Shown here: positions 8,483-35,111 of the stretch, one piece after another
Layout of the letters: each line of letters begins with the position of its first letter
Numbering within the stretch: position 1 is the stretch's first letter
Assembly: GCA_947627975.1 (NCBI GenBank)
Contig: CANQYB010000002.1
Location: forward strand, 4,740 to 68,739
Length of the DNA stretch: 64,000 nucleotides
Origin: an uncultured Bacilli bacterium
GTDB taxonomy: Bacteria > Bacillota_I > Bacilli_A > RF39 > UBA660
Reading direction: 5' to 3'
The notes under the pieces: generated by a model
Database searches by the model: none
Told to the model about the DNA's origin: nothing
Seen by the model: the letters and a program-made list of their open reading frames with translations, nothing else
Position numbers and translations under genes: made by a program

Positions 8483-9262
8483 TTATCTTGGAAATCCTAC
8501 ATACATAAGCCCATTACATTTTAACCCCCCTATGCCATCTTTCCCATATTTAGTTTTGCTTAACAAATTAATTAAATCAATTTCTTGATTGCGTTCTGTT
8601 AAAGCAATAGTTGATGCTATTATAGCTGGATCTAAAGCATGAATATTTATTCGCTTAGGACTTGAAGCAAAATTTGCTCCTGCTTTTATTAGTTCTTCAT
8701 AATTACTTTGACATGCCCCAGCAATAATAACCAATTTTTCATGACTTTTCTCAATTTTACGTGCTAATTTTACAGCTTTTATAAAATTATTTGAATTTTT
8801 ATAACTGTTTTCTCCCTTTTTATTATAATATGCATCATGCCCAGTAATGATTACAATATCAGGACTATACTCTTTTATTAAACTAGTTATTACATTGGGA
8901 ATATCACTTTCATTTATTTGTTTCCCTATAGCTAAAACTTTGGCTTGTTTATAAAAATCTAAACACCTTTTTAAATAATCTTCATCTCCATCAATATGTA
9001 ATATTTTTGCTGGTAAATAAAAAAAATCATTTCTATCTTCCTTAAGATTTATATAAGCATCTTTTACAAATTGTTCCTCAACTACATTATGCTCATAAAT
9101 TGTTAAATCTTTATAATTACTATCAGCATATAATCTTATATCTATTCCTTTTAAATAATAAATATTATTTTTTATATTTAATACTTTAAAAATAATATCA
9201 TGATTATAGCTTTTTCTAGTAACAAGATCTCCTTTTTTTATTTTCAAAAAAATATCACCCAT
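8483..9262 (-). CDS. yabG: Sporulation-specific protease YabG (peptidase U57)
   Basis: The conserved C-terminal half is IVIITGHDAYYNKKG...LVIIAGACQSNYEELIKAGANFASSP. The position ksgA-(insert)-yabG-veg matches Bacillus. Confidence 0.75.
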   Translation of the reverse strand: MGDIFLKIKKGDLVTRKSYNHDIIFKVLNIKNNIYYLKGIDIRLYADSNYKDLTIYEHNVVEEQFVKDAYINLKEDRNDFFYLPAKILHIDGDEDYLKRCLDFYKQAKVLAIGKQINESDIPNVITSLIKEYSPDIVIITGHDAYYNKKGENSYKNSNNFIKAVKLARKIEKSHEKLVIIAGACQSNYEELIKAGANFASSPKRINIHALDPAIIASTIALTERNQEIDLINLLSKTKYGKDGIGGLKCNGLMYVGFPR

Positions 9263-9306: not shown

Positions 9307-10131
9307 TTATTTTTTAACTAAAACATTTTCTTTTTCATGTGAATCAAATACTAATAAAAAATTTTTTAAAGATTTTAATAATGTAGTGTCAATGATTTGT
9401 TTAGATATATTATAAATACTTGCAAGTATTTCAGTCTTTATTCCTAAAAAATATGTAATTAATATATTATAAGACATATTATCCATATCATCCTTTAATT
9501 CTTCATTTAATATTTCAGCTTCCTTTTTTATATTACATAAATTATCTTTTTTATAATAAATCAAAATATTGGTAATTCCAATAACTGCATAATTATTAGC
9601 TATATTATTTAACATTAATATTCTTTTTTCTTTAAAATCATTTATTGAATTTTCTAAATTTAAAATATTATATATTAAATTTATATCCCAGTACATACCT
9701 ATTGAATCTAATTTTAATGTTCGATTTACTGTTAATTTATTGTTATTATATAAAAATCTTTGTTTTTTTAACCACTTAGCTATTTTTAAATTATCAGGAA
9801 TAATTAAATTTTTATGATTTTTAAAGTATTCTTTAGCTATTTTATAATTTTCATCCCATTGTTTTCTTTCTTTAAGGTAAAAAGAAAAATCATTATTATT
9901 TTTTGATTTATCATAAATTTGCCAAACCATTCCAATGTTATTTAATTTTTCTTCTCTTTCTTTACTTAATTTGTTTTTCTTTTTGAAATCTCGTTGCTTA
10001 CTAATCCAATCACCCAGTTTTACTCCATCAATAATATATCTTCTTGGTACTTTTAAATTACCTTTTGCCTCATAATACTTTTTAGCAATTTTATATTTTT
10101 CATTCCATAAATCATTTCTTGTTTTTTTCAA
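9307..10131 (-). CDS. HA (helicase-associated, PF03457-like) repeat protein with a C-terminal sigma region-4-like HTH; TTG start
   Basis: Two W-x-E-x-Y...GNL-x-VP...LG-x-WI-x-x-QR repeats. The C-terminus NMSYNILITYFLGIKTEILASIYNISKQIIDTTLLKSLKNF fits the sigma-70 r4/LuxR-type HTH pattern. The start is a TTG 4 nt after a GAGGTGA Shine-Dalgarno that contains the upstream gene's TGA stop. Confidence 0.55.
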   Translation of the reverse strand: MKKTRNDLWNEKYKIAKKYYEAKGNLKVPRRYIIDGVKLGDWISKQRDFKKKNKLSKEREEKLNNIGMVWQIYDKSKNNNDFSFYLKERKQWDENYKIAKEYFKNHKNLIIPDNLKIAKWLKKQRFLYNNNKLTVNRTLKLDSIGMYWDINLIYNILNLENSINDFKEKRILMLNNIANNYAVIGITNILIYYKKDNLCNIKKEAEILNEELKDDMDNMSYNILITYFLGIKTEILASIYNISKQIIDTTLLKSLKNFLLVFDSHEKENVLVKK

Positions 10132-11492
10132 ATTATCACCTCTTTACCCTAAATGTTTTATTTTTTTCCCAATTAATTCCTATTGATTCTAATAATTCTA
10201 TTTTTTCTAAAGATAAATCATTATTTAGGTATTTATCGCGTTGTTCTTTTAACCATTTTCCTAAATTTAATTCATTAAAACTATAATCATCGCTTACTGC
10301 TAAATTTTGATTTAATTGAAAATATTGTAATGCATTAGTATAGTTTTTATACCAAATAAGTTCTTCTTGAGTATTACCTTTTTTATTTTCAATTTTTTTG
10401 GGATTTAGGCTATTTGTTTTTATATTTACATGCCATGTTATTCCAATATTATTTAATTTTATTACTTTTTCTTGACTCAAATTTTTAAAATTTTTAGCTT
10501 GATATTCAATCCACTCTCCAAGTTTTACTCCATCTACAACATAATTTTTTGGTATTTTTAAATTACCGTGTTCTTTGTAATATTTCTCTGCACATTTATA
10601 TTTTTCATCCCAGGTATAATTAACTTGCCAAATCATTCCAATACTATTTAATTTATCTATTTTTTCTTTACTTAATTTGTTTTCTTTTTTTAATTTACGT
10701 TGTCTAAAAATCCAATCTCCCAACAAAAAATTTTCTACCTTATAATTTACTGGGACTTTCAAATTACCATGTTCCTTATAATACTTTTTAGCAATTTTAT
10801 ATTTTTCATTCCATAAATCGTTTCTTGTTTTTTTCAAATTATCACCTCTTTACCCTAAATGTTTTATTTTTTTCCCAATTAATCTCTATTAATTCTAATA
10901 ATTCTATTTTTTCTAAAGATAAATCACTATTTTGGTATTTATTACGTTGTTCTTTTAACCATTTTCCCAAATTTAATTCATTAAAACTATAATCATCGCT
11001 TACTGCTAAATTTTGATTTAATTGAAAATATTGTAATGCATTAGTATAGTTTTTATACCAAATAAGTTCTTCTTGAGTATTAACTTTTTTATTTTCAATT
11101 TTTTTGGGATTTAGGCTATTTATTACCACATTTTCATGGCTTGTTATTCCAATATTATTTAATTTTATTACTTTTTTTTGACTCAAATTTTTAAAATTTT
11201 TCTTTTGATTTTCAATCCACTTGCCAAGTTTTACTCCATCTACAATATAATTTTTTGGTACTTCTAAATTACCGTATTCTTTATAATATTTTTCTGCATA
11301 CATGTAATTTTCATCCCAAGTATAATTAACTTGCCAAATCATTCCAATACTATTTAATTTATCTATTTTTTCTTTACTTAATTTATTTTTTTTATTTAAT
11401 TTACGTTGACTTCTTATCCATGCACCTAAGCAATAATCTTCATCTTTATAATAAATTGGTACTTTTAAATTACCGTGTTCTTTATAATATTT
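10081..11492. repeat. Tandem direct duplication of a ~706-bp unit (10081-10786 and 10787-11492)
   Basis: Direct alignment at a 706-nt offset: about 95% identity over the first ~340 bp of each unit and about 85-90% over the remainder. Each unit includes the stop/SD/TTG-start junction. Confidence 0.8.
10136..10837 (-). CDS. Stand-alone HA-repeat protein (three repeats), a tandem duplicate of the 3' end of the sigma gene; TTG start
   Basis: Three HA-like repeats. The C-terminal ~100 aa are about 95% identical to the C-terminus of the upstream sigma-HA protein, and the N-terminal 20 aa are identical to the downstream 274-aa protein. The same stop-in-SD junction is present. Confidence 0.6.
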   Translation of the reverse strand: MKKTRNDLWNEKYKIAKKYYKEHGNLKVPVNYKVENFLLGDWIFRQRKLKKENKLSKEKIDKLNSIGMIWQVNYTWDEKYKCAEKYYKEHGNLKIPKNYVVDGVKLGEWIEYQAKNFKNLSQEKVIKLNNIGITWHVNIKTNSLNPKKIENKKGNTQEELIWYKNYTNALQYFQLNQNLAVSDDYSFNELNLGKWLKEQRDKYLNNDLSLEKIELLESIGINWEKNKTFRVKR

Positions 11493-13613
11493 TTCTGCAC
11501 ATTTATAATTTTCATCCCAAGAATATAAAATTTGCCATTGCATTCCTAATTTATTTAACTTATTTATTTGATCATCAGTTAAATTTCCACTTTTTTTAAA
11601 TTTTCTTTGATCTGATAGCCAATCTCCTAACTTTCTTCCATTAACTTCATATTTTTGAGGAATATCTAAATTACCATACTTTTTATAATATTTTTCTGCA
11701 TACATGTAATTTTCATCCCAGCTATAATTAACTTGCCAAACCATTCCAATACTATTTAACTGTTCTATTTTTTCTTCACTTAATTTATTTTCTTTTTTTA
11801 ATTTACGTTGATGACTAATCCATGAACCTAGGCAATAATTATCTACTTCATAATCTATTGGTACTAATAAATCACCATATTTCTTATAATATTCATCAGC
11901 TTTTAAAAAAACTTCTTCCCATGTACATGGAATTTGCCATTGCATTCCTAATTTATTTAACTTATTTATTTGATCATCAGTTAACATTCCCTTTTTTCTT
12001 AATTTTCTTTGATTTGATAACCATTTGCGTAGCTTTCTTCCATTAACTTCATATTTTTGAGGAATATTTAAATCACCATGTTTTTTATAATATTTTTCAA
12101 CATCCATGTAATTTTCTTCCCAAAAATCATTAACTTGCCATTTCATTCCTAATTTATTTAACTGTTCTATTTTCCAATCTGTTAGTTTATTTTCTTTTTT
12201 TAAGTTACGTTGAGAATCAATCCACTCTCCAAGTTTTACTCCATCAACAATATAATTTATTGGGACATTTAAATTCCCACTTTCTTTGTAATAATTTATG
12301 GCTAGTTTATAATTTTCAGTCCATAAATTATTTTTATAATTTTCTTGTTGATAATTTTTTTCTTGTTTATTATTTTGTTTTTGTTTATCCTCATTAGTAT
12401 CGCTTATTTGTTGAATAATGTTTCCTTTAAAATTTTGTTTTTCATGAATATATCTTTTTAATTTACGTAGTGCCTTATATTCAATTTGTCTAATTCTTTC
12501 ACGTGTTACATTAAATCTTTTTCCAACGTCTTCTAAAGTATATTCGATACCATCAATAAGTCCAAATCTAAGTTCTATTACTCCTTTTTCTCTTTCATCT
12601 AAACGGTTAAGTACTTCTTTAACTTGAGCTTTTAGTACATCATTAATAGCTTTTTCTTCAGGATTAATATTTGAGTCGTCAGGTATAACATCACCAAAAC
12701 GCGAATCATCTTCACCAATTGGTGATTCAAGTGATATTGGATCTTGAGATATTCTCATTACTTCTTTAACTTTATCAACGGAAATACCCATTTTTTTAGC
12801 AATCTCTTTTTCACTTGGTTCTCTTTTTAACTCTAAAGCCATTTGTCTTTGTATAGTATTTACTTTATTAATAATTTCTACCATGTGTATGGGAACACGA
12901 ATAGTTTTCCCCTTATCAGATATAGCACGAGTTATTGCTTGTTTAATCCACCAAGTAGCATATGTTGAAAATTTATATCCCTTTTCATAATCATATTTAT
13001 CCAAAGCTTTAATTAACCCACAATTTCCTTCTTGAATTAAATCTAGAAATGATAATGAACTTCTTCCTACATATTTTTTGGCAAAAGAAACTACTAATTT
13101 TAAATTGGAATCAATAAATTTTTTTCGAGCAATTTTATCACCATTTGCAATTTTTTTTGCTAATTCTTTTTCTTCTTCTTGACTCAACAAAGGATACTTA
13201 TTTATCTCTTGTAAATATATTCTTACTGAATCATAAATTTGATTATTATAACTTTCATAAAAATTAATTATTTTATCATCAAATGTATTTTCTACCGTAA
13301 TATTATTAATAAGACAATAAGCATCAATTAAATTTTTAGCAATTGAATTTTCAAATATTGTATTTGATTTATCATTTTTTATATTATTTAAATTTTTTTC
13401 AACAACGATTTTTAAAATATATTTTAACGTATTATGACTATTTACTAAATTTATATATAATTCTATATCATCAACAATACTTGTATTTAATTTAATTTCA
13501 TATTCAATAATTTTACAAATATCCATCAAATATTTATAATTTAGTTTGTAACTTGAATCTATCTTACAGTTATTGTCAATATAATCAAATATGCTTTTAC
13601 TAAAACTATCCAT
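10842..13613 (-). CDS. Group-1/2-type sigma-70 (RpoD-like, regions 1.2-4.2) fused to about seven C-terminal HA-domain repeats
   Basis: Residues 1-~400 carry the sigma regions: [26 protein letters not shown] (r1.2), [41 protein letters not shown] (r2), RVPIHMVE (r3), [29 protein letters not shown] (r4.2). Residues ~430-923 are seven ~65-aa repeats of the form W.ENY..AEKYYK.HGNL.IP..Y.V.G.KLG.WI..QR. Total 923 aa. Confidence 0.8.
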
Positions 13614-13633
13614 TATATAACCCCCAAAAAATT

Positions 13634-13661
13634 ACTAATAGGTATTATATCATTTTTTTTT
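13634..13661 (-). promoter_or_regulatory. Near-consensus sigma-A promoter with extended -10 driving the sigma-HA operon
   Basis: Minus-strand read: TTGAAA, a 16-nt spacer, then TGATATAAT, followed by a GGGGGT Shine-Dalgarno and the ATG at 13613. Confidence 0.5.
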
Positions 13662-13712
13662 GGTTTTTCAACTATTTTTAAAAAAACAAAATAAAAAAAA
13701 TTGCTTTATTTA

Positions 13713-14495
13713 TTATAAATTATTAGCAATTTCTATGAAAATTTCTATAGATATTTCTTCCGCCCTAACATTTTCATTAAATCCATATTTTTTAAGTACA
13801 TCTTGTATTTTTTTATAATTAAAATTTTTAATATTATTTTTCAACGTTTTTCTTTTTTGTGTAAATGATTCATTAACTAATTTAAAAAATAATTCTTCGT
13901 TTTTTAAATAAAATTTTTTCTTTTTAGGCGTAAATTTAACAATAGCACTATCAACACTTGGCATGGGATAAAAATTACTTTTATTAACATCAAAAAGTTT
14001 TTCAACATCAAAATAATAATTCAAAAAAATAGTTAACGAATTATATTGTTTTGTTTTTACTTTTGCAGTAAAACGATCAGCAACTTCTTTTTGAACCATA
14101 AGAATAATTTCATTTATATTTAAATCTAAATTAATAATTTTTTTAATAATTGGTGTTGTTATATAATAGGGAATATTAGCAATAAAAGAAACTTTATCAT
14201 AATTTATTGAATTTATATCTTCTAAAATATTACTAGTCATAAAATCACTATATATAATTTTGGTGTTTTTATCTTTTATATTATCTAAAAATAATTTTGT
14301 ATCTTTATCAATTTCATAACATATTATTTTTTTATTTAATTTTTTTAAATGTTTAGTAAGCATTCCAGACCCTGGACCTATTTCAATTATTAAGTTATTA
14401 GTACTAACATTTATATTATTTATAATTTTTTCAATTATTTTATCATTATTTATAAAATTTTGTCCAAATTTCTTTTTAAATTTAAATTTTTCCAT
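13713..14495 (-). CDS. rsmA: 16S rRNA (adenine1518/1519-N6)-dimethyltransferase
   Basis: FGQNFL..IIEIGPGSG..NIPY motifs of KsgA/RsmA. Confidence 0.9.
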   Translation of the reverse strand: MEKFKFKKKFGQNFINNDKIIEKIINNINVSTNNLIIEIGPGSGMLTKHLKKLNKKIICYEIDKDTKLFLDNIKDKNTKIIYSDFMTSNILEDINSINYDKVSFIANIPYYITTPIIKKIINLDLNINEIILMVQKEVADRFTAKVKTKQYNSLTIFLNYYFDVEKLFDVNKSNFYPMPSVDSAIVKFTPKKKKFYLKNEELFFKLVNESFTQKRKTLKNNIKNFNYKKIQDVLKKYGFNENVRAEEISIEIFIEIANNL

Positions 14496-14513: not shown

Positions 14514-15083
14514 TTAAACACTTTGCCATCCATTTCTTAAAATTTCGTAATTGATGTTACTACTTCCGACATCTTTTTTAGCTATACTTGTATTTTCAAC
14601 TAGTAAATCAAGCGTGTTTCCAGATACTCCTCTATCTAATACAATTGCAATTACCGGTTCACTAGATATAGAATCTTTTTTAAACCTAACAATTGTTCCA
14701 CAAGAGTATTTTTTTGATGAAGCAACAATTCTAATATTACCAAATTGTGAATCATTATAGTATACATTGCCATTTGATAAATCTATAGAAGAATCACAAG
14801 CAAGATGTCCTCCACAACTTGGACAATTATAAACATAGCCAGTAAGTTTTCCTTTTACTGTGTTTTCTAAAGTATTTGTATTATTACTATTTTCTGAATT
14901 ATATTCTTCTTTGACAATTTTTTCTGACATAAGTTTCATAGCATTTAAATCTAACGACTTATTTAAATTAGAATTTTCAACTTTACTTAAGCTGCTAGAA
15001 GAATTTATTTCTACAACCAAAAGTAAAGATAAAACTAAAGAAAACTGAATAGTTTTTAAAACATATTTTGCAATTTTTTTCAT
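14514..15083 (-). CDS. Secreted 3D-domain protein (short YabE/YuiC-like)
   Basis: Signal peptide, then a C-terminal 3D-like region (YSCGTIVRF...VIAIVLDRG); it occupies the yabE position between tatD and ksgA. Confidence 0.45.
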   Translation of the reverse strand: MKKIAKYVLKTIQFSLVLSLLLVVEINSSSSLSKVENSNLNKSLDLNAMKLMSEKIVKEEYNSENSNNTNTLENTVKGKLTGYVYNCPSCGGHLACDSSIDLSNGNVYYNDSQFGNIRIVASSKKYSCGTIVRFKKDSISSEPVIAIVLDRGVSGNTLDLLVENTSIAKKDVGSSNINYEILRNGWQSV

Positions 15084-26329: not shown

Positions 26330-28858
26330 TTAATTTTCTTCTTCAATTTCTTCATTTTCTTTATTTACTAAACTAATTTCAGCAACTTTTTGATTTTCTT
26401 TCAAATTAATTAATTTAACTCCTTGAGTAACTCTTCCTAACGTAGAAATTTGACTTAATGGAGTTCTTATTATCATACCTGAATCAGTTATAATCATTAA
26501 ATCTTGGTTTTCTTCAACGATTTTAAATGAAGCAATTGTTCCATTTTTTTCAGTAATACTTAAAGCTTTTACTCCTTTACTACCTCTTTTAGTTTGTCTA
26601 TATTCAGATACATTAGTTTTTTTACCATATCCTTTTTCAGTTACAATTAGTACTTGATTATCTTCATTAGTTACTTCTGAACCAATACATTCTGAACCAT
26701 CTAAATTAATTCCTTTTACACCTGTTGCAGTTCTTCCCATAACTCTAACTTCATTTTCATTAAATTTTACCATTCTACCATTAGATGAACCAATTAAAAC
26801 TATATCATTTCCAGTAGTTTTTCTTACGGAAATTAAAGAATCATTATTTTTAAGACTAATACAAATTTTGCCAGTTGCTCTTATATTATCAAAATCACTT
26901 ATTCTAGTCTTTTTAACAATACCTTTTTTAGTAGCAAACATCAAATATTTATATTTTTCTTCGCTATTATTTAATTTAATTATTGAATTTATTTTTTCAT
27001 CTTTTTCAATTTGTAATAAATTAACTATCGGTATTCCTTTCGCTTGGCGGCTAAATTCTGGTATCTCATATCCTTTTAATCTATAAACTTTTCCCTTATT
27101 AGTAAAGAATAAAACATAATCATGTGTTGATAAATTAATCAAGTGTTTTACATAATCTTCTTCGTTAGTTGACATTCCTTTTACACCCGTTCCGCCTCTA
27201 TTTTGAACTTTATATGTATCAGAATTTAATCTTTTAATATAACCATTGTTTGTTAAAGTAATTATTATATTTTCCTCTGGAATCAATGATTCATCTTCAA
27301 TATAATCAATTGCTGTCATATCAATTGTTGTTCTTCGATCATCAGAATATTTATTTTTTATTTCAGTTAATTCTTCTTTTATAATATTCAAGACTTTTTG
27401 TTCTGATGCAAGAATTGATTTATATTCTTCTATTTTTAATAACAAATCTTTTAATTCTTCCTCAATTTTAGATCTTTCTAAACCTGTTAATCTTCTTAAT
27501 TTTAATTCTAAGATATTATCAGTTTGAATTAAAGATAAATTAAATTTATTCATTAATGTTTCTCTTGCAATTTGATCGGTTTTAGATGATTTTATAATTT
27601 TTATTACTTCATCTATATTATCTAAAGCTATTTTATATCCTTCTAAAATATGAACTCTATTTTCAGATTTATTTAATTCAAAACGAGTTCTTCTAATTAT
27701 AACTTCTTTTTGATGGTCAATATATTTAGAAATAATTGATTTTAAATCTAAAGTTTTTGGAATTAAGCCATCTAGCATTAATAATATTATGCTATAAGTA
27801 GTTTGAAAAGCTGTATGTTTATATAAATTATTTAAAACAACTTGTGGATTCGCATCTTTTTTTAAAGTAATAGTTATTTTTACTCCATTTTTTAAATCTG
27901 TATGATAATCTGAAATTCCATCAATAATTTTATTGTGAACAAGTTCAGCTACTTTATTTTTTAAATCAAAAGTATTTATTCCATAAGGAACTTCAGTAAT
28001 AATAATATTACTGTGTCCTTTGTGTTCTTCAATTATAGCTTTACTTCTTATTGTTATAGTACCTCTTCCAGTTTCATAAGCCTTCTTAATACCAGAATTT
28101 CCTAAAATTATACCTCCTGTAGGAAAGTCTGGTCCTTTTATATAATTCATAAGACCTAAAACATCAATATCAGGATTATCTATATAAGCAATACAACCAT
28201 CAATTACTTCGCCAAGATTATGAGGAGGAATATTAGTTGCCATTCCAACAGCTATTCCCATTGTTCCGTTAACTAAAATATTAGGAAATTTTGATGGCAA
28301 AACTTTAGGTTCTTTAGTAGTTTCATCAAAGTTTGGATCAAAATCAACTGTATCTTTATTTATATCTCTTAAAAGTTCCAATGAAATTTTTGATAATCTA
28401 GATTCTGTATAACGCATTGCTGCTGCTCCATCACCTTCAATATTACCAAAGTTACCATGACCATCAACAAGTAAATATCTTTGACTAAAATTTTGAGCCA
28501 TTCTAACCATTGCTTCATATATAGATGAATCTCCATGTGGATGATAGTGTCCCATAACATAACCAACTGTAGTTGCTGATTTTCTGTGAGGTTTATCGGG
28601 TGTATAACCTGATTCATACATTGACCATAAAATTCTTCGATGAACAGGTTTTAATCCATCTCTTAAATCTGGTAGTGCACGAGAAGCAATAACGCTCATT
28701 GAATAACTTAAAAATGATTTTTCAACTTCATCTACAATATTATTTTCAGTTAATTTATCTCTTTCATGAAAAACACCATTAAATTCATTTTCTTCACTAG
28801 TATTTTCTTCATTTATTATTTCATTTTCATTTTCTATATTTTTATTTTCACTATCCAT
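26330..28858 (-). CDS. gyrA: DNA gyrase subunit A
   Basis: Active-site Tyr region AAAMRYTE, the QRDR, and a C-terminal beta-pinwheel; 842 aa. Confidence 0.95.
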
Positions 28859-28869
28859 TTTATACCTCC

Positions 28870-30795
28870 CTAAATATCAAGATTTTCAACATAACCAGCT
28901 TGTTCTTCAATAAATTTTCTTCTTGGTTCAACATCATCACCCATTAACTTAGAAAAAACAGCATCTGCTTTAACACAATCATCAACAGTTATTTGTCTTA
29001 AAGTTCTAGATTCTATATCCATCGTTGTTTCATTTAATTCATCGGGATCCATTTCTCCTAAACCTTTCATACGAGCTATTTCTGCTCTTTGTCTAATATT
29101 TTCAGGTAAAGAAACTAAATATTGTTCCTTTTCTTCATCAGTTAAAACATATTTTCGAACTTTTCCATGGGATATTCTAAATAATGGTGGTTGTGCAGCA
29201 TAAACATGACCTTTTTCAACAATTGGTCTAAAAAATCTATAAAATAAAGTTAATAATAATACTCTAATATGGGCTCCATCAACATCGGCATCTGTCATTA
29301 TAATTATTTTATCATATCTCAATTTATCCAAATCAAATTCATCACCAATACCTGTTCCAAAAGCCGTAATTATTGTCCTTATTTCTTCATTATTTAATGC
29401 TCTATCTAATCTATTTTTTTCAACATTTAAAATTTTTCCTCTAAGAGGCAGTATTGCTTGAGTCATTGAATCTCTACCTTCTTTGGCAGATCCACCAGCT
29501 GAATCACCCTCGACAATAAAAATTTCTGATACTTTAGGATCTTTACTTTTACAATCAGATAATTTTCCATAAAAATTAGTTATAGTTAAATCTCCTTTAC
29601 GAGAAATTTCCCTTGCTTTTTTTGCAGCATTTCTAGCACGACATGCAAGCATAGATTTTTCAACAATTAATTTAGCTTCATCAGGATTTTCCAGTAAAAA
29701 TTTTTCAAATCCCTTTGAAAAAACATTATCAGCTAATTTTCTAACTTCAGAATTTCCAAGCCTTCCTTTAGTTTGACCTTCAAATTGAGGATTGGGATGT
29801 TTACAAGAAATAATCATTGTAAGTCCTTCTTTAACATCTTCACCTGTTAAAGATTCATCTTTTTCTTTTAAAATATTATTTTTTCGAGCATAATTATTTA
29901 TAACTCTTGTTAATGCTCTTTTAACTCCTTCTTCATGAGTTCCACCATCATGAGTGTTAATATTATTAACAAACGAATATATATTTTCGTTATATCCAGT
30001 GTTATATTGCATTGCAACTTCAAACATAACACCATCATCTTCACCTTCTAAATGAATAATATCTTCATGTATAGGTGTTTTTCCTTGGTTTATAAACTTA
30101 ACATACTCAGAAATACCACCTTCATATATAAATGTATCCCCAGTAGTATCTTTTTCATCTCTATCATCTCTTAAAGTAAGTCTCAATCCTTTATTTAAAA
30201 AAGCAAGTTCTCTAACACGAGTTAATAAAGTATTATAATCATATATTTCAGTATCAAATATATCTGGGTCTGGTTTAAATGTTACATGAGTTCCAGTTCG
30301 ATTTTTTTCGCATGTGCCAATTTCTTTTAAAGATTCTACTGTATGTCCACCATTTTCAAAGCGAATATAATATATTTTTTCATTTTTATAAACTTTTACT
30401 TCTACCCACTTTGATAAAGCATTTACAACAGATGCTCCAACTCCATGAAGTCCTCCAGATACTTTGTATCCACCTCCACCAAATTTTCCACCGGCATGTA
30501 ATACAGTATATACCGTTTCAACTGTACTTTTTTTAGTTTTAGGATGTATATCAACAGGTATTCCTCTTCCATCATCTTTAACTGTTATACTATTATCTTT
30601 ATTAATTATAATTTCTATATTTTCACAATAACCAGCTAAAGCCTCATCAATTGAATTATCCACAATTTCCCATACTAAATGATGTAAGCCCTTAACATCT
30701 GTTGTACCTATATACATACCTGGTCTTTTTCTAACTGCTTCTAATCCTTCCAAAACTTGAATATCTGATGCATCATAATGTTCATTATTTTTCAT
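28870..30795 (-). CDS. gyrB: DNA gyrase subunit B
   Basis: GHKL ATPase, Toprim EGDSAGG and [11 protein letters not shown] motifs. The start is taken at MKNNEHY; the first in-frame ATG at 30816 would overlap recF further. Confidence 0.95.
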
Positions 30796-31885
30796 ATATT
30801 TTTTCCTCCACTCCATTTTCAGTTATAATAAATATTTTACTATTTTTCAAAATTTCTTCTTTAACATTAAAAATATTAGTTGTTGTAATAAATATTTGAA
30901 TATTTTTATTTAATAATTTCATAATATTATTAATTTTATTATCATCCAGTGAACTATTTAAATCATCTAAAATTAAAATTGGATATTCTCCTTTTAATTT
31001 TTTAAATATTTCTATTTCTGCCAATTTTAAAGAAAGTATGGCATTTTTTTGTTGTCCTTCTGAACCATAATCTCGTAAATTATCTTCTGAAAGTAAAAAA
31101 ATTAAATCATCATGATGTATTCCAAATTGAGTTATTCCTAATGATAAATCCTTCTCAAAAAAATCTTTATATTTTTTAACTAATTGCTTTTTATTTAAAT
31201 TATTATAAGAAGATTCATATTTTATTAATAAACCATCAATACCAGTTATTTTTTTATAAAAATAATTAATATTTTCATTTATTTTATCAATAAAATTTTT
31301 TCTTTCAATATTTATTTTTAGTCCTAATTCAATTAATTTATCAGTTAAAATATCTAAATAATCTTTTGATGAAAAACTATTTAAATATAAAGTTTTTAAA
31401 TAAGAATTTCTCTGTTTTAAAACTTTATTATATTCATTTAATAATTTTAAATAACTATTATTTAACTGAGAAATTTCAATATTTAATAATTTTCTTCTAT
31501 AATTTGGAGAATTTTTGATTATTTTTAAATCATCGGGAGAAAATAAAATTATATTTATATTTGAAATATAATCACTTAATTTTTCTTGTTTTTTATTATC
31601 TATTTTTACTTTTTTTCCAGCTGTAGATAATATAACTTGATAATTTTTTTTTAAATTAGTTAAAATATTTCCCTCAATTTTAGTACTAATAGAATTTTTT
31701 TTAATTATAATTTGTTCGTTGCTAGATCTAAATGTTTTTGTGAAGCCTAAAATGTATATACTTTCAATTAAATTTGTTTTTCCCATACCATTATTGCCAA
31801 TTATTATATTTGTACTTGGAATAAAATTTAAATTTATTTTTTCATAATTACGAAAATTTGTAAGTTTTAAATCTAGTATTTGCAT
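30785..31885 (-). CDS. recF: DNA replication and repair protein RecF
   Basis: Walker [10 protein letters not shown], the SMC-like signature YGSEGQQK and ILILDD Walker B; 366 aa. Confidence 0.9.
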
Positions 31886-31913
31886 TTTTTAGCCTCTTTT
31901 TCGTCGTATAATT

Positions 31914-31946
31914 AAAATAATAGGTATATTTGTATCCCTATATACC
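31914..31946 (-). terminator. Hairpin plus T-tract downstream of the comK-like gene
   Basis: ATAGGTATAT-N10-ATATACCTAT inverted repeat followed on the minus strand by TATTTTA. Confidence 0.35.
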
Positions 31947-31988
31947 TATTAAAATTATATCATAAAAAAGCCTTATTTTAAAGTTTTT

Positions 31989-32435
31989 TTAATTTTTTTT
32001 TCTATTTCTTAAAACAGATTCTAATCTTGTTGCTCTAAGAATTTGATTATCAATAATTCCATATGATAAATTTAATTTTAAAAAATTATTATTTGTAAAT
32101 TCAATTTTTATAAAATTATCACATTTATAGTATTTTTCAATATATTTAAGCCTAATCCAAGTACATTCTTCTGCTTTTCTACTCGAAGCTGTTGGAAAAA
32201 AAATCATTTCTTTTGATTCTTCAACAATAATTGGTGATTTATGAGATACTCCAATTAAATTTTTTGTTCCTTTTTTTCTTCCCAATAATGTACTTCCAAA
32301 ATATTCACAACTATTTTCCATAATACTATTTACTGATTTTGAAATAATAAATTCATCATTTAATTCAATTATTTTTGAAGTATTTTTAGTTAATGGACAA
32401 ATTGCAATAGTTTCGTTATTTATTTCATAATTCAT
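31989..32435 (-). CDS. comK: ComK-family competence transcription factor homolog
   Basis: Aligns to B. subtilis ComK: INNETIAICPL with VNGATIAVLPE; CEYFGSTLLGRKKGTKNLIGVSHKSPIIVEES with CRFFGSSYAGRKAGTYEVTKISHKPPIMVDPS; IFFPTASS with IFLFPTLSS. The true start is MNYEI; the ORF's apparent MKGGKI N-terminus is the AGGAGG RBS read as codons. Confidence 0.6.
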   Translation of the reverse strand: MNYEINNETIAICPLTKNTSKIIELNDEFIISKSVNSIMENSCEYFGSTLLGRKKGTKNLIGVSHKSPIIVEESKEMIFFPTASSRKAEECTWIRLKYIEKYYKCDNFIKIEFTNNNFLKLNLSYGIIDNQILRATRLESVLRNRKKN

Positions 32436-32521
32436 TATTTTTCCTCCTTTCAAAAAATTTTAAAGCCTATTAAAACATATATAATTTAAAAAGATTGTCG
32501 AAAAAAAAAGCATACTTAAAT

Positions 32522-33640
32522 TTAGTATGTTTTTATTGGTAATAATAGTTGAATGAGAGTTTCATCTTTCACTGATTTTATAACTATAGGCTTAGAATCT
32601 CCATTCATTAAAATTAAAATATCGTTATCTTTTATTGTTTTTAAAGCTTCTAACATATATTTTGAACTAAATGATATGTCTAAATTATCTGAAACTTTAC
32701 TATCAACAACTAACTGTTCTTCAACTTTTCCAACTTCTACAGCAAAAGAACTTACTATTAAAATATTATTATTTAATTTCATTGATACAATATTTCTATC
32801 TTTACTTTGAGTAAGTAATGCAGCACGATCTATAGCTCCAGTAAAATCATTATTTTTAGTATTTATAATAAATTTAAATTCAGTTGGTATTAAAGTTGAA
32901 GTATCAGGATATGTTCCAGATAGTAAATTTGTTTGAAATAATAAATTTTTATATTTAAATAAAATTTTGTTATTAAATATATGTAATTCTATATCTTCTT
33001 TATTATCTAACATTTTTTCAAATTCTATTAAATTTTTGCCTGGTACTACTATATTAACACTTTCTTGAAAATTATTATCTAATTCGACAGTCTTTTTTGC
33101 TAATCTATATGAATCTGTTGCTATACATTCTAAAATATTACCATTAATTTTAATATTTATTCCAGTAAGTAAAGGTCTTGATTCTTGTGTACTAACAGCA
33201 AAAGAAGTCTGATTTATGATATTTTTAAATAATTCACTGTTTATAAAAATTGGATTTTTACTTTCGTCTATTTTTAAATTTGGATATTCACTTGGATCCA
33301 TACAATTTAAATTAAATTCATTATTTTCAGTATATATTTTTATTTTTATATTATCAATAACTTCAACATTTATTATATCACTTGGCATTTTTCTAATAAT
33401 ATCTAAAATGTATTTACTTTGAATTATAATTATGCCATTTTTTTCAATTTGGTTAATTTTTTTATTTTCAATAAATGCTTTTATTGTAAGTTCTGTATCA
33501 CTTGCTGTTAAATATAACCCCTTATCATTCAATTCCATTTTTATTCCATTTAAAATAGGAATAATGTTTTTGTTAGAAATAGCTTTACTAACATATGTTA
33601 AATTTTCTAAAAAAATTCCTTTTTCAATTGTAAATTTCAT
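32522..33640 (-). CDS. dnaN: DNA polymerase III beta sliding clamp
   Basis: 372 aa with three beta-clamp domains, immediately downstream of dnaA. Confidence 0.95.
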   Translation of the reverse strand: MKFTIEKGIFLENLTYVSKAISNKNIIPILNGIKMELNDKGLYLTASDTELTIKAFIENKKINQIEKNGIIIIQSKYILDIIRKMPSDIINVEVIDNIKIKIYTENNEFNLNCMDPSEYPNLKIDESKNPIFINSELFKNIINQTSFAVSTQESRPLLTGINIKINGNILECIATDSYRLAKKTVELDNNFQESVNIVVPGKNLIEFEKMLDNKEDIELHIFNNKILFKYKNLLFQTNLLSGTYPDTSTLIPTEFKFIINTKNNDFTGAIDRAALLTQSKDRNIVSMKLNNNILIVSSFAVEVGKVEEQLVVDSKVSDNLDISFSSKYMLEALKTIKDNDILILMNGDSKPIVIKSVKDETLIQLLLPIKTY

Positions 33641-33755
33641 AATAATTCCTTCTTTCTTTTAATAATAATAACGGTGTTAAAATATGTTGAAAACTATAGA
33701 TGTTCTTTAAATATAAAGAAAATAATGTTTAATTATTAACATTTTTTTAGCAAGT

Positions 33756-35111
33756 TTATAACATATCTTTAATATTTGAAATAATTTCATTTAATTTTTT
33801 ATTACTTTTAATGTCATTTGAAATTTTATCAACAGCATGAATTACTGTAGCATGATCTCTACCTCCAAATTCTAAACCAATTTTTATTAATGATTCCTCA
33901 GTTAACATTCGACACATATACATAGCAATTTGCCTTGGATAATTAATATTACTTGTTCTTTTTTTGCTTTTTAAATCATTAATAGTAATATTATAATAAT
34001 CAGCAACACTTTTTTGAATTTTACTTATATTATTTGTAATATAAATATTTTTATTAGTATAATCTTTTAAAGCTTCCATTGCTATTTCTAAAGTAATATG
34101 TTGAAAACCCATTATCGCTGTATAAGCATATAACCTTGTAATTGCCCCTTCCAAATGCCTTACATCATTTTCACAAGAATTAGCAATAAATTCAATAACA
34201 TCATCATCTATTTTTTTAGCAACATCATGTCCATTTATTTTATTTTTTAAAATTTGTTTTTTCAAAATAATATCAGGAGGCAAGATATCAACAGGAAGTC
34301 CCCAAGCAAAACGTGTTCTTAATCTATCTTCAAGTAATTTTAAATCATCTGGGGATCGATCTGAAGATATTATTATTTGTTTATTTGCCGAATATAGATA
34401 ATTAAAAGTATTAAAAAATTCTTGTTGAGTTTTTTCAGCTCCAGCTAAAAATTGTATATCATCAATAATTAAAACATCTACATTACGATATTTATCCTTA
34501 AAATATTCCACATAATTTTGATTATTTCCAGTTACATTTCTAATTCCAGTAAAATCAGTAGTAAATTCATCACTTGTAACATATAAAACATTTAAATTAG
34601 AATTTTCTTTAATATAATTGCCAATTGCATGCATCAAATGAGTTTTTCCAACACCACTTTTTCCATAAATAAAAAGAGGATTATACAGTTCTCCAGGATT
34701 TTGAGCAACAGAAAGGCCTGCAGTTTGAGCAAATTTATTAGATTCACCCACTATAAAATTTTGAAAAGTATATTTATTATTTAAATTAGTATTAACTATA
34801 TTTTTTTTGTTTGTATTATCATTAATAATTGATTCAATTGGTTCATTTTTCATTTCATCTTCTAATACAAAATCTATATCATAATTTTCTCCCGTTAAAG
34901 ATTGAAATGTTTCTTCAATTAAATCATAGTAATTTTTCATAAGTAAGTTTTTTTGTAAAATCATTGGTACTTGGATGATGGCTTTACCATTTTCAATTTC
35001 TAAAAGAGATGCATCTTTAAACCATGTGTTAAAAGAAATTGGATTAACTTTATTATTAATTATTGCTAAAAAATTTTGCCATAAAGTTTGAATATTCAAA
35101 ATCATCACCAC
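33756..35111 (-). CDS. dnaA: Chromosomal replication initiator protein DnaA
   Basis: AAA+ Walker A GKSGVGKTHL, LIIDDIQF Walker B, and the C-terminal DNA-binding domain with HATV. Confidence 0.95.
   Translation of the reverse strand: MVMILNIQTLWQNFLAIINNKVNPISFNTWFKDASLLEIENGKAIIQVPMILQKNLLMKNYYDLIEETFQSLTGENYDIDFVLEDEMKNEPIESIINDNTNKKNIVNTNLNNKYTFQNFIVGESNKFAQTAGLSVAQNPGELYNPLFIYGKSGVGKTHLMHAIGNYIKENSNLNVLYVTSDEFTTDFTGIRNVTGNNQNYVEYFKDKYRNVDVLIIDDIQFLAGAEKTQQEFFNTFNYLYSANKQIIISSDRSPDDLKLLEDRLRTRFAWGLPVDILPPDIILKKQILKNKINGHDVAKKIDDDVIEFIANSCENDVRHLEGAITRLYAYTAIMGFQHITLEIAMEALKDYTNKNIYITNNISKIQKSVADYYNITINDLKSKKRTSNINYPRQIAMYMCRMLTEESLIKIGLEFGGRDHATVIHAVDKISNDIKSNKKLNEIISNIKDML

Follow-up and report, generated by a model that had tools for sequence, protein, structure and literature searches.

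A divergent SigA paralog with a helicase-associated repeat array in an uncultured gut bacterium

Results

A sigma-70 factor with a repeat array heads a three-gene operon

We analyzed a 64-kb stretch of DNA (contig CANQYB010000002.1, hereafter the window) from an uncultured gut bacterium whose genome is very AT-rich, with 22.6% GC in the region considered here. Between ksgA and yabG lie three open reading frames (ORFs), designated A, B, and C, the first of which encodes a 923-aa protein that joins a sigma-70 core to an array of helicase-associated (HA) repeats (Table 1). The initial annotation of the window had described a complete sigma core, a C-terminal array of HA repeats, and a three-gene HA operon placed between ksgA and yabG, and each of these elements is borne out by the ORF list and by Pfam. 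All four sigma-70 families are found above their cutoffs in ORF A (PF00140, PF04542, PF04539, and PF04545), so that regions 1.2, 2, 3, and 4 are present; the matches span residues 128–386 with E values of 7e-16 for Sigma70_r1_2, 3e-20 for r2, 5e-25 for r3, and 1e-17 for r4. No other sigma gene occurs in the window.

The repeats match the HA family PF03457 (cutoff 28.4 bits) in all three proteins: 381.5 bits over 7 stretches in ORF A (E 1.2e-116), 158.5 bits over 3 stretches in ORF B (E 5e-47), and 108.8 bits over 2 stretches in ORF C (E 1.6e-31). In ORF A, successive repeats begin at residues 431, 498, 565, 632, 699, and 766, an exact 67-aa period, and a degenerate terminal repeat begins at residue 852. 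The array is not contiguous with region 4, from which the Q/N/K-rich linker separates it. The modules have the three-helix fold of PDB 2KTA. Despite the name of the family, no helicase domain was found in the three proteins, their neighbors, or their relatives. Position-by-position entropy reveals a conserved scaffold (W1, Y5, A8, Y11, L18, L31, G32, W34, Q38, R39, L47, L55, and W62) and moderately variable positions near the W-I-x-x-Q-R helix; it reveals no hypervariable pair of the TALE type. Net charge per 100 aa ranges from +3.7 to +11.9 across arrays, against a background of +1.7 +/- 3.9.

Table 1. Features of the ksgA–yabG interval and its flanks (window coordinates)
Feature	Position	Strand	Basis
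ORF A, sigma-HA fusion, 923 aa, ATG start	10842-13613	(-)	ORF list, Pfam, NCBIfam
ORF A residues 1-125, family-specific helical N-terminal domain in place of region 1.1	13239-13613	(-)	
ORF A residues 126-392, sigma-70 regions 1.2, 2, 3, and 4; housekeeping-type recognition residues including TRERIRQIE	12438-13238	(-)	Pfam, NCBIfam, identity comparison
ORF A residues 393-430, low-complexity Q/N/K-rich linker, 38 aa, between region 4 and HA array	12324-12437	(-)	
ORF A residues 431-923, six HA repeats with 67-aa (201-nt) period, spacer, degenerate terminal HA repeat	10845-12323	(-)	
ORF B, 233 aa, TTG start, 3 HA repeats; tandem duplicate of last 233 codons of ORF A	10136-10837	(-)	Pfam, self-alignment
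ORF C, 274 aa, TTG start, 2 HA repeats and C-terminal domain (CTD)	9307-10131	(-)	ORF list, Pfam
ORF C residues 1-160, two HA repeats	9652-10131	(-)	
ORF C residues 161-274, CTD, sigma-region-4-like helix-turn-helix fold	9310-9651	(-)	
Junction 1, AAGAGGTGA (stop inside Shine-Dalgarno) and TAAT, directly before TTG of ORF B	10838-10850	(-)	
Junction 2, same stop-in-Shine-Dalgarno design before TTG of ORF C	10132-10144	(-)	
G-rich Shine-Dalgarno TGGGGG, 7 nt before ATG of ORF A	13621-13626	(-)	read from sequence
Candidate sigma-A-type promoter, TTGAAA-16 nt-TGaTATAAT, in 99-nt gap after ksgA	13644-13671	(-)	motif match only
706-nt tandem period, ~2.3 units: end of ORF A, whole of ORF B, start of ORF C	9909-11519	(-)	
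Putative gene-conversion tract	10884-10968	(-)	L003 base at 8/8 differences equals base 706 nt downstream
Flanking gene KsgA/RsmA (RrnaAD)	13713-14495		Pfam
Flanking gene YabG, peptidase U57	8483-9262		Pfam

The three genes are translationally coupled, as had been proposed, through stop-in-Shine-Dalgarno junctions: both read AAGAGGTGA-TAAT-TTG, with GAGG 7 nt ahead of the start codon. The accompanying claim of a near-perfect extended -10 sigma-A promoter stands in part. The site upstream of ORF A matches at 11 of 12 positions and has the TG, but promoter-like matches as a class are no commoner in the region than in shuffled sequence (68 versus 63 +/- 9), and the site is therefore a good candidate only. 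Scans of the region returned no terminator-like site, Rfam family, or tRNA.

All three ORFs are likewise present in a second assembly of the same species from a different sample (L003). Because this independent assembly carries the identical set, an assembly artifact or one-off frameshift that falsely joined or split the sigma domain and the array is rejected as unlikely. A programmed +1 frameshift joining the ORFs was also considered and rejected: an in-frame TAA follows the stop TGA, AGG to GGT would be a poor slip, and in both lineages that have such junctions a proper Shine-Dalgarno sequence stands 7 nt before the TTG or ATG start.

Tandem duplication and gene conversion shaped the array

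A 201-nt (and 402-nt) tandem period runs through the array of ORF A, and a longer 706-nt period extends across the ends of the three genes. ORF B reproduces the final 233 codons of ORF A along with the junction, at 90% nucleotide identity over 720 nt, and 61–71 nt around the two junctions are identical. These alignments indicate that a 706-nt tandem duplication created ORF B. Synonymous divergence (dS) between the copies is 0.24, and the ratio of nonsynonymous to synonymous divergence (dN/dS) is 0.37–0.43; a ratio near 0.4 at this dS implies lasting constraint on both copies. Over 22.7 kb, the window and L003 show only 8 differences, every one of them within a short tract of ORF A (Table 1). 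The pattern of bases there points to gene conversion between the tandem copies, an assembler swap between copies being less likely.

ORFs A and B share a C-terminal ending that resembles the tail '...EKNITLLKR' of the CTD of a relative, P0121 (see below). This resemblance leads us to infer an ancestral first gene that lost its CTD before its 3' unit was duplicated, which would leave ORF C as the sole CTD carrier at this locus.

The CTD of ORF C has a sigma-4-like fold

Residues 161–274 of ORF C have no Pfam match at E 10. Modeled with AlphaFold from a family alignment of 8 sequences, the domain has a mean pLDDT of 77.7, rising to 82–93 over residues 205–260, and displays the helix-turn-helix fold of sigma-70 region 4. 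In hhalign, the helix-turn-helix aligns in register with region 4.2, weakly (E 0.009, probability 4%), and LuxR-type matches are also weak (E 0.09–0.7). The -35-contacting residues R-E-R-x-R-Q are not kept; the alignment has K/E-x-E/D-V/I-E-x-N/K-R instead. A profile search of the CTD against 5.8 billion proteins returned one fragment only, P0267.

The first half of the CTD profile (motif l..Li.nY.d..lTnlLiy.k; ORF C residues ~165–215, window 9490–9640, and the corresponding part in relatives) also matches LWY repeats, those of PSR2, an RxLR effector of Phytophthora (5gnc_A). The E value, 3.4e-10, is a sum over six stretches that are each weak; the match may reflect a helical-hairpin or compositional similarity.

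The ksgA–yabG junction is a variable insertion site

Searching YabG in a collection with a single genome for each GTDB species gave 80 loci from uncultured gut Bacilli, among them 'Mycoplasma sp. CAG:776', Ca. Caccenecus, Ca. Onthocola, Ca. Ventrenecus, and many metagenome-assembled genomes from rabbits; the best YabG match is 90% identical. In most of these genomes ksgA is directly adjacent to yabG, which agrees with the earlier view that the operon is inserted at a normal ksgA–yabG junction. By tblastn, none of the 80 loci has a sigma, HA, or CTD sequence within 10 kb of yabG, and the operon at this junction is thus specific to this species. No direct repeats of 9 nt or more flank the insertion.

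About 12 of the 80 genomes carry 1.5–7.7 kb of unrelated accessory genes at the junction. Across these loci (L004–L083) they include a 2492-aa surface protein, acyltransferase-like proteins, and helix-turn-helix and membrane proteins, and the closest relative has two secreted proteins. Such varied contents mark the junction as a variable insertion hot spot.

Other features of the window lie outside this interval. One is a 189-aa protein at 14514–15083 (-), with a signal peptide, a Cys-rich center, and no Pfam match at E 0.01, which almost all of the 80 relatives conserve between tatD and ksgA. Farther away is a gyrA-gyrB-recF-dnaN-dnaA block at 26330–35111 (-), its gene names being assigned from ORF sizes and order only. 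The coding strand flips just past dnaA, at ~35500, and the window thus probably includes the replication origin.

A tiny family of sigma-HA fusions

Relatives were sought in 5.8 billion proteins and 1.8 billion representatives. Sigma-HA fusions were limited to the window's own cluster and six entries from three other lineages, and no member carries a name. The fusion is not a common annotated architecture; had it been one in related genomes, that would have refuted the initial proposal. P0001 is 99% identical to the window protein. The relatives differ widely in length and repeat number: P0002, P0003, and P0004 have 1082–1083 aa (P0003, 1083 aa) and 6 HA repeats, P0012 has 575 aa and 1 repeat, P0139 has 731 aa and 3 repeats, and P0121 has 2157 aa and ~24 repeats. 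In each of these six, a single ORF runs from the N-terminal domain through the sigma core and HA repeats to the CTD that ORF C also carries. All records of the relatives come from ENA metagenome assemblies with neighboring accession numbers; the window protein is also in an NCBI assembly. Judged from these searches, the family is tiny and unannotated, and is found only in gut Bacilli metagenomes of ~22% GC, at non-syntenic loci.

Indeed, each genomic context is different. P0003 lies between ftsW and a two-component system, and P0139 comes after recA and a short sigma paralog of 388 aa. At L087, a short sigma paralog adjoins a sigma-HA3-CTD gene. P0121 (L084) lies between leuS and proS, where three family genes stand in a row. 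Directly upstream of the P0121 gene is a 568-aa sigma-HA1-CTD gene, and downstream, across a AAGAGGTGA-AAAA-ATG junction, is a 1386-aa HA19-CTD gene. Stop-in-Shine-Dalgarno coupling to a sigma-less HA protein therefore recurs in a relative that is only 48% identical. The 568-aa product (L084 8267–9973) is itself a degenerate sigma paralog whose region 2.3/2.4 reads DDRISTYAFNLIISQIIKGIANF, followed by one degenerate HA repeat and the CTD. Both this protein and P0012 have diverged at the recognition residues of regions 2.4 and 4.2. L001, which holds another family copy, and L087 come from the same sample at matching coverage (218x and 219x), which probably places three or more family members in one genome. 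A multi-copy state is probable for the family, whose members often lie beside further sigma paralogs. A neighbor-joining tree of the sigma cores has long branches, and it neither supports nor refutes monophyly of the family.

Other searches found no further fusions. The HA protein had no tblastn match in 50,697 phage records, a scan of JGI metagenomes gave 80 loci with the sigma core only and 0 with HA, and PHROGs gave generic sigma-core matches only. Although few bacterial proteins have been studied as thoroughly as sigma factors, literature searches turned up no paper combining a sigma factor with a helicase-associated domain, and no group-1-like sigma whose C terminus bears both a large array of DNA-binding repeats and another region-4-like domain. 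The sigma-HA design is real, very rare, and undescribed.

A separate set of SigA-like proteins (P0011, P0013, P0032, and P0247; 656–1035 aa) has a related N-terminal domain and 2–4 extra Sigma70_r4 stretches, with no HA. P0013 shares 80% core identity with the canonical SigA of the lineage. Their sequences suggest a wider undescribed radiation of extended SigA paralogs.

ORF A is a divergent paralog of the housekeeping SigA

The canonical SigA of this lineage has 377–386 aa and a region 1.1, and its gene follows dnaG and precedes trmK. Across regions 1.2 to 4.2, the cores of four named or widespread SigA clusters are 96.6–98% identical to one another; the core of ORF A is 66–67% identical to them. 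For YabG, identity is 91% between CAG:776 and Caccenecus and 71% between either of them and the window. Scaling by this ratio, a rough extrapolation, an orthologous SigA core would be expected at ~89% identity. ORF A also scores below the NCBIfam cutoffs for RpoD (NF006666, 391.5 versus 572; NF004208, 380.7 versus 555; TIGR02393, 328.6 versus 354), and it is not beside dnaG. Neither Pfam nor profile or fold comparison of the N-terminal domain detected a region 1.1; this domain is confidently predicted as a helical bundle (pLDDT 84, pTM 0.76) with little negative charge. Relative to canonical SigA, ORF A keeps its region 2.4 and 4.2 recognition residues unchanged, and a sigma-A-like promoter specificity is therefore predicted. 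Taken together, these comparisons indicate that ORF A is a divergent SigA paralog and almost certainly not the housekeeping sigma, a canonical sigA being presumed elsewhere in this genome.

Discussion

We consider it moderately probable that ORF A is an accessory sigma factor, derived from the lineage's SigA, to which additional DNA contacts have been added. Holoenzyme containing ORF A would read sigma-A-like promoters, while the disordered linker would tether seven basic HA modules behind the sigma core. ORF B would supply an HA-only protein and ORF C an HA protein ending in a sigma-4-like helix-turn-helix, so that the domain apparently lost from the first gene would be provided in trans. The HA array and the extra sigma-4-like domain might then contact DNA outside the core promoter, anchoring or pre-positioning sigma on DNA and biasing RNA polymerase toward particular regions. 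Tandem duplication in units of 201 and 706 nt, along with gene conversion, is also remodeling the array. The auxiliary nucleic-acid-binding array envisaged in the initial annotation is plausible. A study cited in PMC12191111 (Mills et al. 2013) reportedly found DNA binding for the HA fold (2KTA, from Bacteroides vulgatus BVU_0683).

Several points weigh against this interpretation. DNA binding by HA, as cited there, goes back to a single NMR (nuclear magnetic resonance) study of a remotely related homolog from Bacteroides, and the ORF A array, at a net charge of +3.7 per 100 aa, is only modestly above background. The sigma-4-like CTD lacks the R-E-R-x-R-Q contacts and any significant sigma 4 sequence match, and it might bind a protein, such as the beta-flap, and not DNA. 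The candidate promoter is suggestive, as a motif match in AT-rich DNA. The analysis covered one contig, and the dnaG-sigA locus is attributed to this genome from its lineage. ORF A itself is known from sequence and models alone.

A bolder proposal, which we put forward tentatively, is that the family is a new class of initiation factor, in which a SigA-derived sigma carries a long DNA-binding array of 1 to ~24 HA modules and, at its end, a second sigma-4-like domain. Holoenzyme might be held on DNA or might measure the distance to a second upstream site, with repeat number as a tunable spacer or clamp and the separate HA and sigma-4-like proteins as partners. The main rival to added DNA contacts, in our view an unlikely one, is regulatory and argues from analogy with the C-terminal domains of ECF41/42: the sigma-4-like domain would mimic region 4, occupying the beta-flap or folding onto the sigma core, and the HA proteins would be anti-sigma or co-sigma modules. 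It accommodates a CTD that has the sigma-4 fold yet lacks DNA-contact residues, and the translational coupling of stand-alone HA-CTD genes to a sigma gene in two lineages fits stoichiometric partners; the sigma factors of the extracytoplasmic function (ECF) group with fused regulatory C-terminal domains treated in PMC3426412 offer a precedent. However, it leaves arrays of 1 to ~24 DNA-binding-type repeats unexplained, and ORF A has no CTD in cis.

The remaining explanations are less probable. Decay, which we regard as improbable, would have broken a single sigma-HA-CTD gene into three ORFs by deletion and duplication, leaving a selfish or functionless repeat locus. The whole arrangement is indeed one ORF in relatives, the endings of ORFs A and B suggest an internal CTD deletion, and duplication and gene conversion are active; but the three ORFs and the sigma core are intact in two assemblies, the duplicates show the constraint described above, and both junctions have optimal Shine-Dalgarno spacing in a design shared with the 48%-identical relative. 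Slightly more improbable still is a defense role, suggested by analogy with MZA and with HA-PLD fusions, in which the sigma would use HA arrays to sense foreign or modified DNA and switch on a response. HA domains are fused to PLD defense nucleases in examples given in PMC12191111, the insertion site is a variable hot spot, repeat number evolves fast, and ORF A matches MzaA. That match, however, is to the generic sigma core, at 297.8 against a cutoff of 800 bits; PADLOC gives nothing beyond it for ORFs B and C or the relatives, no nuclease, helicase, or other effector genes lie nearby, and the phage records hold no HA match. We rate lowest of all the suggestion in the initial annotation that ORF A is the organism's main sigma, moved to the ksgA–yabG junction and extended. 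Its complete core with unchanged -10 and -35 recognition residues, the strong sigma-A-like promoter match, its standing as the sole sigma gene in the window, and the merely presumed presence of a canonical sigA in this genome would all suit that role. Against it are the low identity to a lineage SigA that is itself ~97% conserved, the sub-cutoff RpoD scores, the missing region 1.1, the lack of an adjacent dnaG, the absence of the gene at this locus in 80 relatives (including the one with a 90% identical YabG), and the non-syntenic, probably multi-copy distribution of the family.

If the array of this putative accessory sigma factor does contact DNA, it would represent a new way of targeting RNA polymerase, with the contacts in sigma itself and not in the alpha C-terminal domain or separate activators. 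The HA domain, so far poorly understood, would also gain a setting in which its function is tractable, and the range of 1 to ~24 repeats, with ongoing duplication and gene conversion, provides a natural series on the role of repeat number. Were the new-class proposal true, the family would be a sigma with a built-in activator or a chromatin-like tether. More broadly, the family suggests an expansion of SigA paralogs in uncultured gut Bacilli with reduced genomes, whose transcription apparatus is otherwise assumed to be minimal.

It is useful to contrast ORF A with known systems. Group 1 SigA/RpoD of Bacillota, represented by P0271 ('Mycoplasma sp. CAG:776' RpoD, 379 aa), has the same regions 1.2–4 and the same 2.4 and 4.2 recognition residues. 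ORF A differs from it in a core that is 66% identical, in an N-terminal domain that replaces region 1.1, in its location away from dnaG, and in its C terminus, which lacks the 'RHPSRAKKLKDF' tail and adds ~530 aa of linker and HA array. The long SigA-like Bacilli proteins P0011 (656 aa), P0013 (966 aa), and P0032 (1035 aa) share a related N-terminal domain, a SigA-like core, and a sigma-4-type helix-turn-helix end; they have no HA, and their extra region-4 copies are recognizable by Pfam, unlike the CTD here. Other PF03457 proteins (e.g., BVU_0683, PDB 2KTA) share the repeat, whereas here there is no helicase or nuclease, the array is joined to a sigma or sigma-4-like domain, and recent tandem duplication drives the evolution of repeats spaced at exactly 67 aa.

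MzaA (NCBIfam NF041931, PADLOC PDLC02203), which belongs to the anti-phage system MZA, is, like ORF A, a large sigma-70-family protein with non-sigma parts. The two align over the sigma core only, the PADLOC match covering profile positions 415–671 of 683, and the Mza partner genes are absent near ORF A. The ECF41/ECF42-type sigma factors share with this family a C-terminal extension in the same polypeptide that likely modulates activity. Those are group 4 factors with sigma 2 and sigma 4 only and with SnoaL-like or TPR extensions. ORF A, by contrast, is group-1-like and has regions 1.2 and 3, which sets it apart from the ECF group, and the extension in its family consists of DNA-binding-type repeats and a second sigma-4-like domain.

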